Assembly (NCBI GenBank): GCA_038216085.1
Contig: JBBQQI010000002.1
Coordinates: 374-64,373 of the forward strand
Source of the DNA: Gaiellales bacterium
Lineage (GTDB): Bacteria; Actinomycetota; Thermoleophilia; Gaiellales; Gaiellaceae
DNA: 64,000 nt
Direction: 5' to 3'
This document shows, in pieces, positions 2,938 to 35,963 of the stretch (position 1 is its first letter; the number at the start of each line of letters is the position of its first letter). A program made the translations under genes and the position numbers. The notes under the pieces were generated by a model. The model made no database searches. It was not told the DNA's origin and worked only from the letters and a program-made list of their open reading frames with translations.

Positions 2938-3279
2938 ATGACGGTGCTCGAGACAGCCGCGTGCTGTTCGCCACTGACGGCGACGACTCTCGGTGACGAC
3001 GAGGCCGAGGCCGCGGCTGCTGTGTTCCGCGCCCTTAGCGACCCGGCTCGTGTGCGGATCGTCAATCTGCTCGCAACGAGCAGCGGTCCGGTGTGCATCT
3101 GCGAGCTGATCGAGCCGATCGGCCTCTCGCAGCCGACGATCTCGCATCACATGAAGAAGCTGGTCGACGCCGGCCTGCTCGAGCGTGAGCAGGACGGCAA
3201 ATGGGCCTACTACTCAATCAATCCGGCTGCGATCGAGAAGCTTGCTGCGGTCGCCGACCTCAAGGGAGCGTGCTGCTGA
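2938..3279 (+). CDS. arsR: ArsR/SmtB family metalloregulator
   Basis: Winged-HTH signature (LSDPARVRIVNLL...CICEL...LSQPTISHHMKKLVDAGLL) with an ELCVCD-like CIC site and a C-terminal CC pair. Confidence 0.85.
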   Translation: MTVLETAACCSPLTATTLGDDEAEAAAAVFRALSDPARVRIVNLLATSSGPVCICELIEPIGLSQPTISHHMKKLVDAGLLEREQDGKWAYYSINPAAIEKLAAVADLKGACC

Positions 3280-31635: not shown

Positions 31636-31800
31636 TAGAGGCTTGATGTGGATCTCATGCACTCGCGGATAGTGACTCAGACACGTCACAGCTCGCCCGG
31701 GTCGGGCTTGGACATAGTCACCGCTATGCGCTTCGCCCGCCCGAACGAGCTGCTTGGTCTGAGCCATCCCGCAAGCACCCCAATCCACATCAAGCCTCTA
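31636..31800. repeat. 165-bp element bounded by a perfect 18-bp inverted repeat (tagaggcttgatgtggat / atccacatcaagcctcta)
   Basis: The arms are at 31636-31653 and 31783-31800, and the interior has further rod-like pairing. Read as a 16-bp TIR, the element is flanked by TA on both sides. It fills the thrC-like 2 to ppc spacer. Confidence 0.6.
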
Positions 31801-33015
31801 CGAATCGAGGCCGAGTGCCGCGAGCACCTCGCGGGCATCGGGGGCGATCGCCTGCGCACTGCCGACGCCGGCGAGGTCGAGCTGCGGCCGCGACCCGGTG
31901 ACGACGAGCACCACGCGCGACCCGGCCTCGATCTCGCCGCGGCGGATCGCCTCGACGAGTGCGCCAAACGCCGCGCCGCCCGCGCAATCGGCCTCGATCC
32001 CGACTGTCTCGGTGAGCAGAGCGGTGTGCGCCGCAATCGCCTCTTCGGACACCGCGTGGACGGCGCCTCCCGTTGCGCGCGCGGCGCCGAGTGCGAGGTC
32101 GCCGTGTGACGGGTTACCGACCGCGAGCGACGGCACACCGGTGCTCGCCTCGACGCGGGAGATGCTGCGGTCGCCGGCGAAGGCGTCGGCGATCGGGCTC
32201 GATCCCTGTGACTGCCCTGCGAAGAGGCGCGGCACGGGCACGTGCGAGAGGCCGGCGCGCGTCAGCTCCGAGAAGCCCTGCGCGAGCTTCGAGAACAACG
32301 TCCCGCTTGCGGCGGGGCAGACGACGGCGTCGGGGAGCTGCCACTCGAGCTGTTCGGCGATCTCGAAGGAGATCGTCTTCGCACCCTCGCTCGCGTAGGG
32401 ATGGAGATTGCCGCTGACGAAGCCCCATGGGAAGAGCGCGCCGAGCTCGAGCTCGAGGCGGCGGCAGTCGTCGTAGGTGCCCGAGACGGCAAAGACGCGG
32501 GCGCCCGGGTGACGCGCGGCAACGGTCCCGGCGCCGACGCCGGCAGGTGCGAGCACCATCGCCTCGAGCCCGGTGGCGGCCGCCGCGGCGGCGACGGCGT
32601 CGCCGAGGTTGCCCGTCGACGAGCAGCAGACAGTCGTCAACCCGTGCTCGAGGGCCGCCGAGACCGCAAGGGTCGCGATCCGGTCCTTGTAGGAGCGGGT
32701 CGGGTTCTCGCCTTCGAGCTTCAGCAGCAGGTCGATCCCGAGCAGGTCCGAGAGCGAGTCGACGCGCTCGAGCGGCGTCCAGCCCGCCTGGACGCCCATG
32801 GCGGCTGCTGTGGGCAAGAGCGCCGAGTAGCGCCACAGCGAGGGCGGCCCGGCCGCCACCGATGCGGGGCTCACGAGGCGGCCGATCCGCCGCCAGTCGT
32901 AGGCCACGTCCGTCGGGCCGTCGCAGCGCCGGCACGCGTCGAGCGGCTCGAGCTCGGTCACCTCTTCGCAGACGCGGCAGCGCAATGCGGTGGAGCCGTG
33001 CGAGAACGGGCTCAT
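31798..33015 (-). CDS. threonine synthase-like PLP enzyme with N-terminal Cys4 zinc ribbon (paralog 2)
   Basis: It has CRVCEEV...CRRCDG, NPTRSYKDRIA and CSSTGNLGDA. I prefer ATG 33013-33015 (SD GGGGGA) over TTG 33036. Confidence 0.75.
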   Translation of the reverse strand: MSPFSHGSTALRCRVCEEVTELEPLDACRRCDGPTDVAYDWRRIGRLVSPASVAAGPPSLWRYSALLPTAAAMGVQAGWTPLERVDSLSDLLGIDLLLKLEGENPTRSYKDRIATLAVSAALEHGLTTVCCSSTGNLGDAVAAAAAATGLEAMVLAPAGVGAGTVAARHPGARVFAVSGTYDDCRRLELELGALFPWGFVSGNLHPYASEGAKTISFEIAEQLEWQLPDAVVCPAASGTLFSKLAQGFSELTRAGLSHVPVPRLFAGQSQGSSPIADAFAGDRSISRVEASTGVPSLAVGNPSHGDLALGAARATGGAVHAVSEEAIAAHTALLTETVGIEADCAGGAAFGALVEAIRRGEIEAGSRVVLVVTGSRPQLDLAGVGSAQAIAPDAREVLAALGLDS

Positions 33016-33183
33016 CTGCTGCAGTCCCCCGTCCAAATTGTGGAACCTAACCGGGGGGACGGGTGTGTCCGGCTAGGCCAGTCGCGCGCAGGCGATGGCC
33101 GAAATGAGAAAAACCGGCTTCATCGTCGCTGCGGGGCGCATGCGGAGAAGTCTACAGCGACGGCGGCAAAACCTCAACTACTC

Positions 33184-33200
33184 GCTTCAGTTTGTGTAGT
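33184..33200. promoter_or_regulatory. 17-bp palindrome site S5 (GCTTCA-GTTTG-TGTAGT)
   Basis: The left half is exact and the right half matches 4/6. It overlaps a putative -10 TAGTAT (33197-33202) of the PII-amtB leader. Confidence 0.4.
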
Positions 33201-33247
33201 ATCGGACTCGTCCGGTCGCCGCTGCAGGCGGCCGGCAGAGGCATCGA

Positions 33248-33292
33248 GGCCTCGGAAGCACCGTTTTTTGGTGCTCCCGAGGCCTTTTTTTT
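33248..33292 (+). terminator. strong intrinsic terminator inside the PII-amtB leader (candidate attenuator)
   Basis: A 15-position stem (ggcctcggaagcacc / ggtgctcccgaggcc, 14 bp with one A.C mismatch), loop gtttttt, then T8 (33285-33292). It ends 24 nt before the PII start codon. The upstream gene is divergent, so this terminates no upstream CDS. Confidence 0.7.
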
Positions 33293-33315
33293 GTGTCCAA
33301 ACGGGAGGTGGAGCG

Positions 33316-33669
33316 GTGGTGAAGGTCGAGGCGATTGTGATCCGTGAGCGGGTGGAGACGGTGATCGACGCGGTGGAGCAGGCGACCGGGCACGTCGGTG
33401 TGACCGTGATCGAGGCGATCGGTCATGGCCGCGAGCGTGGCGTCACGCACGAGTACCGCGGCCGGGTGTTCGAGTCCCGGTTCCTGCCGAAGGCGATGCT
33501 CGTCTTCGTCGTCGCCGACTCGCTGGCCGACGGCGCGATCGCAGCGATCGTCGATGCGGCGCGGAGCGGGAACGAGTCGGGCGACGGGCTCTGCTGGGCC
33601 TCGCCCGTGTCGAGTGTGATGCACAACCGGACGGGCGTCAGCCTGGAGGAGGTTGGTGTCGGTGCCTAA
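33316..33669 (+). CDS. glnB: P-II family nitrogen regulatory protein
   Basis: Hand-delimited from ORF 32242..33669: VKVEAIVIRERVETVIDAVEQATGHVGVTVIEAIGHGRERGVTHEYRGRVFESRFLPK... SD GGGAGGTG lies at 33303-33310, with GTG at 33316 or 33319. Confidence 0.85.
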   Translation: MVKVEAIVIRERVETVIDAVEQATGHVGVTVIEAIGHGRERGVTHEYRGRVFESRFLPKAMLVFVVADSLADGAIAAIVDAARSGNESGDGLCWASPVSSVMHNRTGVSLEEVGVGA

Positions 33670-35115: not shown

Positions 35116-35385
35116 CTACCCGCCGGCGACCGCCGGCAGCAGCAGGATCGTCGCCGCCGGCGAGACGGCCGCGTCGAGGCCGCCGAGCAGGCGGATGTCG
35201 TCGCCATCGACGAACACGTTCAGGTAGCTCGGCACGCCGTCGCCTTCAAGGAGCCGGCTCTCGAGGGCCGGGTGGATCGACACCAGCGCGCTCAGCGCCT
35301 CGCGCACCGTCGCCGCCTCGACCGCGACGGTGCGGTTGCCTGCGGCGTCGGGTCTCAGCACCGGGGGTATGCGGATCTGTGCCAC
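35116..35385 (-). CDS. MoaD/ThiS family sulfur-carrier-like protein (C-terminal GG)
   Basis: 89 aa with a beta-grasp pattern (IRIPPVLR...VFVDGDDI...ILLLPAVAGG-stop). GTG start. Confidence 0.75.
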   Translation of the reverse strand: MAQIRIPPVLRPDAAGNRTVAVEAATVREALSALVSIHPALESRLLEGDGVPSYLNVFVDGDDIRLLGGLDAAVSPAATILLLPAVAGG

Positions 35386-35426: not shown

Positions 35427-35963
35427 ATGGACGACCGCCTGCACGTCCTGATCGCCGAGGACGAGACGATCATTCGCCTCGACCTGCGGCAGCTGCTCGA
35501 GGAGGAGGGGCTCGTCGTCTGCGCCGAAGCGCGCGACGGGCTCGAAGCGATCGAGCTCGCGCGCGAGACCGAGCCGGATCTCGCGATTCTCGACGTGAAG
35601 ATGCCGAACCTGGACGGCATCGAGGCCGCGCGCCGCATCTACGCCGAGCGCCCGATTCCGATCGTGATGCTGACTGCGTACTCCGACCCGCCGCTCGTCG
35701 ACCGGGCGATCGGGGCAGGCGTCTTCGGCTACCTCGTGAAGCCGTTTCGCGCGGGCGACATCGTGCCCGCCGTGCGCGCCGCCGTCGCTCGCCACGAGGA
35801 GCTGCTGGCCTCCCGGCGGGACCGTGGCCGCGCCGGCCTGCCGATCGATGTCGATGTCCGCTCGGGCTCGGGAGGCGTCCACTCGTTGCGCCTCCGCCGC
35901 GGTCCGGACGGCGCGCTCAACGTGACACTCAGCCAGCCGGAGCGCGATTCCAAAACTTCATAA
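35427..35963 (+). CDS. response regulator, PdtaR-like receiver with a non-ANTAR C-terminal tail
   Basis: The receiver (VLIAEDETIIRLDL...DLAILDVKMPNLDG...VMLTAYSD...GYLVKPF) is followed by ~55 aa (LPIDVDVRSGSGGVHSLRLRRGPDGALNVTLSQP) with no ANTAR signature. Confidence 0.8.
   Translation: MDDRLHVLIAEDETIIRLDLRQLLEEEGLVVCAEARDGLEAIELARETEPDLAILDVKMPNLDGIEAARRIYAERPIPIVMLTAYSDPPLVDRAIGAGVFGYLVKPFRAGDIVPAVRAAVARHEELLASRRDRGRAGLPIDVDVRSGSGGVHSLRLRRGPDGALNVTLSQPERDSKTS

Follow-up and report, generated by a model that had tools for sequence, protein, structure and literature searches.

The PII-amt locus of this Gaiellales bacterium raises the question of why an intrinsic transcription terminator is located directly ahead of the genes that it would be expected to silence. 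The window, i.e. the whole 64-kb stretch of DNA that was analyzed (64,000 nt), displays an intergenic region at positions 33037–33315 with a minus-strand gene for a thrC-like PLP enzyme on one side and a plus-strand gene for a PII-family protein on the other. The PII gene starts with a GTG codon at 33316. An earlier note, made from the sequence alone and termed here the sequence-only reading, described in this region a −10-like hexamer, a small hairpin whose 3′ arm is part of the 5′ arm of a terminator, a single A·C mismatch in the terminator stem, a U8 tract that ends 10 nt before the Shine-Dalgarno sequence of the PII gene, and an upstream gene that is divergent. All of these were recovered at their positions (Table 1).

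Table 1. Genes and leader elements of the PII-amt locus in the window
Feature	Position	Strand	Basis or remark
thrC-like PLP enzyme gene	31798–33036	−	Upstream, divergent
−10-like hexamer TAGTAT	33197–33202	+	Sequence
Match to covariance model R1	33206–33255	+	66.5 bits, E 2.3e-10
P1 hairpin	33212–33235	+	9 bp including one U·G; hexaloop GCUGCA at 33221–33226; −19.5 kcal/mol
P2 hairpin GAGGC-AUCGAG-GCCUC, predicted anti-terminator	33238–33253	+	Hexaloop at 33243–33248; −8.6 kcal/mol
Terminator stem-loop	33248–33284	+	14 bp and one A·C mismatch, 7-nt loop; −28.6 kcal/mol
U8 tract	33285–33292	+	Sequence
Shine-Dalgarno sequence GGGAGG of the PII gene	33303–33308	+	Sequence; 10 nt downstream of the U tract
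PII-family gene, first putatively regulated gene	33316–33669	+	117 aa; PF00543, 55 bits
Ammonium transporter gene, overlaps the PII stop codon	33653–35065	+	PF00909, 375 bits; TIGR00836, 395 bits
Receiver protein gene, two genes downstream of amt	35427–35963	+	Pfam: only PF00072

The terminator 5′ arm, GGCCTCGGAAGCACC (33248–33262), and 3′ arm, GGTGCTCCCGAGGCC (33270–33284), enclose the loop GTTTTTT (33263–33269). The arms form 14 pairs over 15 stem positions, and the mismatched bases are at 33256 and 33276. The GC-rich stem-loop is followed directly by the U tract, as is characteristic of intrinsic terminators. The T8 is the sole run of seven or more T residues on either strand of the window, which has a GC content of 69.3%, and the hairpin ahead of it is the strongest T-run-associated hairpin in the 64 kb. 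The earlier note had remarked that U-tract terminators of such quality are uncommon in genomes this rich in GC. A simple terminator scan of the window did not list 33248–33292, probably because of the internal mismatch in the stem.

Upstream of the terminator are two tandem hairpins, P1 and P2, which are separated by a 2-nt linker. The arms of P1 are CCGGUCGCC and GGCGGCCGG. The sequence-only reading had placed this first hairpin correctly but had given it a bulge and a pentaloop, and had concluded that the canonical dual-hexaloop ANTAR substrate was not satisfied. The stem is unbulged and its loop is a hexaloop, GCUGCA, as is the loop of P2, AUCGAG; both have a G at position 4 (G4) which is invariant in related sequences. 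With the pentaloop shown to be a misreading, the objection falls away. P2 has a stem of 5 bp. Its 3′ arm (33249–33253) together with the last base of its loop falls within the 5′ arm of the terminator, the common stretch being 33248–33253. P2 and the terminator are mutually exclusive.

Positions 33205–33300 fold at −56.7 kcal/mol (z = −6.1), and none of 200 shuffled sequences is as stable (RNAfold). For a nascent RNA that ends at position 33262, i.e. before the terminator 3′ arm exists, the minimum-energy structure consists of P1 and P2. The terminator is approximately 20 kcal/mol more stable than P2 and wins once its 3′ arm is made. Thus the default state is termination, and read-through requires that P2 be held closed. 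The position of the TAGTAT hexamer predicts a transcription start at approximately 33209, a few bases ahead of P1.

Homologues of the PII protein bear the name P-II in Gaiellaceae and Thermoleophilia MAGs, and the protein assigns the window to this group. When each GTDB species was represented by one genome, a scan provided 80 loci with close PII homologues. In 46 of the 80 loci there is an intergenic leader before PII-amt with the parts in the same order as in the window, which gives 47 leaders with the window included. The order is a −10-like hexamer, a P1 of variable sequence, a near-invariant rAGGC-N6-GCCUC, a terminator, T5–8 and a Shine-Dalgarno sequence. The terminator 5′ arm opens with the GCCUC of P2 throughout these 47 leaders, and the upper stem and loop of the terminator are unrelated between clades. 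Of 72 distinct leaders, 67 have a TANNNT hexamer whose last base is 16–20 nt ahead of loop 1, and in three others this distance is 12 nt; such a spacing points to a likely transcription start just before P1.

A covariance model of P1 and P2, i.e. of the antiterminator conformer, was built on 44 leaders and termed R1. The next best R1 score in the 64-kb window after that of the leader is 18.8 bits, and a second copy was therefore not found there. In the loci the model detects 23 copies outside of the seed, and a repeat search adds three weaker ones (E 0.014–0.034). Copies beyond the seed precede glutamine synthetase I (GSI), glutamine synthetase II (GSII) and GNAT-PII-amt operons. The total is 73 copies in the 529 kb of the window and the 80 loci, and every one is on the coding strand. 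All 73 are followed by a hairpin and a T4–8 run and, 45–134 nt on, by a nitrogen-assimilation operon: PII-amt (47 copies), GSI-GNAT-PII-amt (13), GSII-PII-amt (nine), GSI-PII-amt (two), GNAT-PII-amt (one) and GSI alone (one). These gene assignments were checked with Pfam. In most copies the U tract is 10–25 nt from the Shine-Dalgarno sequence. Loci without an R1 match are mostly truncated contigs, and four of the remainder carry visible variants; two variants, L001 and L002, have a linker of approximately 18–19 nt. The arrangement in the 46 related loci and in the R1 copies, all with a terminator, strongly backs the proposal of the earlier note that the leader acts by conditional antitermination.

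That note had named conservation and covariation of the hairpins in orthologous leaders as a check of its proposal; conservation is found for both hairpins and covariation for P1. In the 44-sequence alignment, both partners of a P1 pair are replaced among the relatives at eight of the nine positions, and the C-G pair that closes the loop is invariant. Pairing and covariation in this alignment exceed those of all 500 column shuffles and of all slid registers. Among the 70 distinct copies, 90% of cells are paired and the covariation score is 0.328; the shuffles give 76% and 0.105, and none of the 500 attains the observed score. When the 3′ partners are slid by 1–3 columns, pairing is 39–45% and the score 0.034–0.112. 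Three G-C pairs of P2 (GGC/GCC) are invariant, and the sole double change is from G-C to A-U in two sequences. The pairing of P2 is supported mainly by the logic of the design, its covariation being almost nil.

The closing pairs of both hairpins are an invariant C-G in the 70 distinct copies. Loop 1 is a hexaloop in 68 of the 70 and has the consensus G-N-N-G-N-A, with G1 in 63 of the 68, G4 in all 68, A6 in 54 and A1 in only two. Loop 2 is a hexaloop in all 70. The A1 and G4 that had been pointed out in this loop of the window are also typical of the copies: A1 is present in 61 (G in seven and U in two) and G4 in 70, with Y3 in 70 and R5 in 69.

An ANTAR target is defined by a pair of hairpins whose stems have no fewer than 3 bp, by hexanucleotide loops that carry A1 and G4, and by a P2 that overlaps a terminator, and the closing pairs matter as well (PMC3369931). 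The Gaiellales leaders display tandem hairpins with a short linker in all 73 copies (9 bp, 5 bp and 2 nt in the window), hexanucleotide loops and G4 in both hairpins, A1 in loop 2, and a terminator hairpin with a T run in every copy; in the window the 3′ half of P2 is within the terminator 5′ arm. The exception is position 1 of loop 1, which in the window is G rather than A. Since published actinobacterial sets conserve this position in only a little over 50%, the G1 of loop 1 is read as a variant and not as an exclusion from the ANTAR targets.

Conservation is focused on both hexaloops and the pairs that close them, the stems are free to covary, and P2 competes with the terminator. On these grounds the PII-amt leader is probably an attenuator of transcription that acts in cis and belongs to the ANTAR-target type. 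Under this model transcription would start near 33209, just before P1, and the nascent leader would fold into P1 and the weak P2. When the regulator is absent, the terminator 3′ arm would displace P2 and the polymerase would halt at U8, giving an RNA of approximately 84 nt with PII-amt off. Under nitrogen limitation, a regulator that binds RNA and has been activated would grip both hexaloops and the closing C-G pairs. As the likeliest candidate we consider a REC-ANTAR response regulator that would act as a dimer, resemble PdtaR, NasT or GnfR in kind, and be encoded elsewhere in the genome. Its binding would keep P2 closed, so that no terminator forms and the polymerase enters PII-amt. For this leader we infer where transcription starts, that nitrogen is the signal, which protein acts and in which direction it regulates. 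The presence of the same switch ahead of glutamine synthetase operons in related Gaiellales indicates that it marks a nitrogen-assimilation regulon.

The leaders share several properties with known systems. As in the eut leaders of Enterococcus faecalis, which are regulated by EutV/EutW (PMC3369931), there are tandem hexaloop hairpins with an essential G4 and a conserved closing C-G, and the 3′ half of P2 is also used by an intrinsic terminator, in its 5′ arm. P2 also fits the Enterococcus eut 13-mer AGCAANGRRGCUY (PMC3369931) with one extra G-C pair. Unlike the eut leaders, loop 1 in Gaiellales starts with G, P1 is GC-rich and 7–12 bp in length, the linker is 2–4 nt rather than 5–12, the targets are PII-amt and glutamine synthetase genes instead of genes for ethanolamine use, and the regulator gene does not lie next to them.

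The Geobacter GnfR target CAGGCAANGGCGCC occurs in nif and glnK-amtB leaders (PMC2995071). P2 is essentially identical to this sequence, and the leader of locus L040 carries GAGGCAAUGGCGCC. In Geobacter too, the conserved CAGGCAANGGCGCC overlaps a terminator in the leaders of nitrogen genes that include glnK-amtB, and this terminator is under the control of a REC-ANTAR protein (PMC2995071), the kind of regulator that is proposed for Gaiellales. Geobacter belongs to another phylum, and its promoters are sigma-54 and GnfM-dependent, whereas the Gaiellales leaders have a −10 of the TANNNT type. The Gaiellales set contains no nif genes, and no gnfK/gnfR-like pair is found beside the targets.

The nasF leader of Klebsiella oxytoca, read by NasR, and the NasT systems likewise pair nitrogen-related genes with two A1/G4 hexaloop hairpins and use protein-dependent antitermination. 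They differ in that nitrate or nitrite is sensed, through a NIT domain or a NasS partner, and the targets are nitrate-assimilation genes. The ANTAR RNAs surveyed in actinobacteria and mycobacteria (PMC8164766) belong to the same phylum as the Gaiellales leaders and follow the dual-hexaloop definition, with positions 1 and 4 partly conserved there also. Their regulators are PdtaR-like, as are the REC-ANTAR proteins on Gaiellaceae-like contigs described below. However, most RNAs of that set overlap a ribosome binding site or a start codon and work at the level of translation, few are coupled to a terminator, and the bit scores are low, at 15–19 (PMC8164766). Gaiellales are absent from the set, and the Gaiellales copies all have a canonical terminator and a coherent gene set.

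The sequence-only reading stated that no attenuator had been described for actinobacterial genes of this type. With respect to Gaiellales this stands, as literature searches gave no description of such an attenuator, or of the regulation of nitrogen assimilation, in this order. It does not extend to other groups. In Firmicutes and Deltaproteobacteria, PII, amt and glutamine synthetase genes are already known to have ANTAR leaders, and for Actinobacteria such leaders had been predicted in a general way: targets have been predicted upstream of these genes in several phyla (PMC3369931; commentary PMC3369936), and low-scoring matches near actinobacterial amt genes are listed in the published survey (PMC8164766). 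The Gaiellales leaders are thus a whole new clade of ANTAR-type members with a small sequence variant, the G1 of loop 1.

As to the regulator, no ANTAR domain was found in the 64-kb window or in 465 kb of the 80 related loci by tblastn with PdtaR and an ANTAR consensus, or by six-frame hmmsearch, the sensitivity of the latter being limited by the make-up of its ANTAR profile. This absence around the target operons indicates that the regulator is unlinked. One match in a search with the receiver protein encoded downstream of amt pointed to a large family of REC-ANTAR proteins, 189 aa long, in soil metagenomes. In L083, an 815-kb MAG contig, a REC-ANTAR gene adjoins a gene for a GAF-HisKA_2 kinase, and at a distance of 7.5 kb an R1 motif with a score of 36.4 bits (E 2e-5) and a terminator precedes GSII. 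The affiliation of L083 with Gaiellaceae or Gaiellales is deduced from its GSII, which is 84–91% identical to the GSII of loci with these titles. Two metagenome contigs, L111 and L121, display a REC-ANTAR gene and a motif before GSII at a distance of 4–7 kb. The REC-ANTAR proteins of these three Gaiellaceae-like contigs match PF03861 (64.8 bits). On these three contigs the motif and a REC-ANTAR gene thus occur together, and a protein of the L083 type may read the leader, with nitrogen status as the putative signal. The proteins found are PdtaR-like, which counts against a nitrogen role; mycobacterial PdtaR acts on translation and is not known as a nitrogen regulator.

The REC-ANTAR gene of L083 has a conserved neighborhood (L083 8346–10807; also in L084 and L085) of an ABC transporter, a 455-aa glutamine synthetase paralogue, GAF-HisKA_2, REC-ANTAR, ClpS and a SnoaL-like protein. 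The 455-aa glutamine synthetase was considered as a target and rejected; it has no motif, and the motif of L083 precedes GSII instead.

The absence of an ANTAR gene near any target operon, together with the G at position 1 of loop 1, would also be compatible with an attenuator operated by a non-ANTAR RNA-binding protein. Two such proteins can be named, namely the atypical PII itself in a feedback loop, and the product of the 35427–35963 gene, an ANTAR-less PdtaR paralogue encoded near the operon in the close relatives of the window. The REC domain of this paralogue is closest to PdtaR (PDB 1S8N, E 4e-35, for the REC part only). It was rejected as an ANTAR regulator, since PF00072 is its only Pfam match and, in the AlphaFold2 model, the REC domain is followed by a beta unit of three strands and not by a helical ANTAR domain. 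The beta unit is conserved, approximately 35 aa long, and has a pLDDT of 75–82. An attenuator of this kind is nevertheless unlikely. Synteny of the gene is confined to the closest relatives, whereas the motif reaches much more distant Gaiellales, and nothing points to RNA binding by the C-terminal unit. Furthermore, P2 matches sequences that are bound by bona fide ANTAR proteins, and REC-ANTAR genes do occur on contigs with the motif. A related conjecture, which we regard as rather a long shot, is that G1 in loop 1 and A1 in loop 2 reflect asymmetric recognition. Taken with the fact that a widespread PdtaR paralogue with a small beta unit instead of ANTAR is encoded beside the operon in this genus, this could mean that the reader is a heterodimer of a REC-ANTAR and an ANTAR-less protein or a new RNA-binding output domain. 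If this were true, it would constitute a Gaiellales-specific variant of the ANTAR mechanism that controls the whole nitrogen-assimilation regulon.

The family of the 35427–35963 product has a chain length of approximately 173–178 aa and the beta-unit motif PI[DE]V[DE]VRSxSGxV[YW]PLRLxRxxDGxLxV. It comprises more than 120 clusters in soil metagenomes, which are KO-labelled NasT/PdtaR though they are without an ANTAR domain. An amino-acid-kinase gene is next after it in the window.

The predicted default product of the ANTAR-type attenuator is a short terminated transcript, and promoter, P1 and terminator could accordingly be viewed as a stand-alone trans-acting small RNA of approximately 84 nt, e.g. 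a sponge for the regulator, with the operon having its own promoter. In the Enterococcus eut system, RNAs that bear ANTAR sites do sequester the regulator. The positions of the motif make this reading decidedly unlikely: all 73 copies are co-oriented with nitrogen genes at the short distances given above, the interval between U tract and Shine-Dalgarno sequence leaves no room for a second promoter in most copies, and in two loci (L062 and L077) a second copy is inside the operon, between GSII and PII. Sequestration would, in addition, be compatible with attenuation in cis.

A structured, conserved leader coupled to a terminator also resembles the design of riboswitches, and the gene set suggests a nitrogen metabolite such as glutamine or 2-oxoglutarate, whose aptamer would control the terminator directly. 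Glutamine riboswitches (glnA RNA and the Downstream-peptide motif) are, like the Gaiellales leaders, cis-regulatory RNAs ahead of nitrogen-assimilation genes, but they have a different fold, bind the ligand directly, and are found in cyanobacteria and marine taxa. A search of the whole window against Rfam gave no family at gathering score, the glutamine riboswitch families included, and these were absent around the site even at E up to 10, where the only matches were chance-level ones to microRNA, ctRNA and Guanidine-III families. The Guanidine-III match, at 33198–33237 on the minus strand opposite P1, has 14 bits versus a gathering score of 36 and was dismissed as a chance product of the GC-rich hairpin. 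Moreover, conservation is restricted to the two terminal loops and closing pairs, the length and sequence of the P1 stem vary freely, neither a junction nor an internal loop that could form a pocket is conserved, and linker insertions of approximately 18–19 nt are tolerated (L001 and L002). Direct sensing by the RNA is thus very improbable.

A constitutive terminator or insulator without regulatory role, or a chance hairpin, is scarcely credible, since the strength of the terminator is all that speaks for it, while the divergent upstream gene leaves nothing to terminate, the element is located between a conserved −10 hexamer and a Shine-Dalgarno sequence, its structure is conserved with covariation over 70 distinct sequences, and, at −28 kcal/mol and with U8, a terminator that acted constitutively would shut down nitrogen-assimilation genes that are essential. 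Attenuation by a leader peptide was considered as well and rejected; the only ATGs in the leaders are within loop 2 of the AAUGG type and have no Shine-Dalgarno sequence.

Other actinobacteria have DNA-binding regulators of nitrogen metabolism, GlnR and AmtR. An ANTAR-type attenuator ahead of PII-amt suggests that in Gaiellales ammonium uptake and assimilation are governed by antitermination after initiation, perhaps alongside DNA-binding regulators. Gaiellales are abundant and almost uncultured soil actinobacteria, and the leader provides a simple sequence marker of their nitrogen regulon (PII-amt, GSI, GSII and GNAT). The survey of actinobacteria found few ANTAR RNAs coupled to a terminator (PMC8164766). 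The Gaiellales set adds dozens of clean, terminator-overlapping ANTAR-type RNAs from a high-GC phylum where these have been reported to be rare, and helps to calibrate ANTAR search models, including their tolerance of G1 in loop 1.

Promoter-proximal conservation extends beyond the −10 hexamer. Many leaders display TTGnnn and, after it in the spacer, CCGTCC. The clade of the window instead has two CTTCA repeats approximately 11–14 nt apart and just 5′ of TAGTAT (region 33150–33202). These elements are possible transcription-factor sites, in which case control of initiation would be layered on the attenuator.

The two loci with an internal copy, L062 (1595–1663 and 2901–2948) and L077 (129–175 and 2898–2945), have two attenuator copies per operon, one ahead of GSII and the other between GSII and PII-amt. 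With a double attenuator, the distal genes could be subject to graded control.

One sub-clade (L050, L053, L063, L070, L076 and L079) displays a mini-ORF between the terminator and PII, and L073 and L075 have the same leader as this sub-clade. The translated peptides are MKQRGRRR, MAKRGRRR and MKRGRR, each ending at a stop codon; the peptide of L079, MQTGGLR followed by a stop, is less similar. The mini-ORF is located approximately 20–50 nt upstream of the PII start (locus position 3001) and has its own Shine-Dalgarno sequence, and its stop codon mostly overlaps the PII ATG (ATGA). It may provide translational coupling or encode an arginine-rich leader peptide.

The PII protein of the window is atypical, as its 55 bits against PF00543 are accompanied by scores far under the NCBIfam cut-offs for GlnB/GlnK. 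From a comparison by eye, we take it to have Phe at the site of the modified Tyr51 of E. coli GlnB. The PII gene is located before amt at this locus and not after it.

The thrC-like enzyme displays a Cys-rich N-terminus. Its gene and a gene for a ThiS/SAMP-like protein ending in GG (35116–35385, minus strand) flank the oppositely oriented PII-amt, and this synteny of thrC-like, PII-amt and ThiS/SAMP-like genes is kept in close relatives. The two flanking genes could encode a sulfur-carrier-dependent amino-acid synthase pair.
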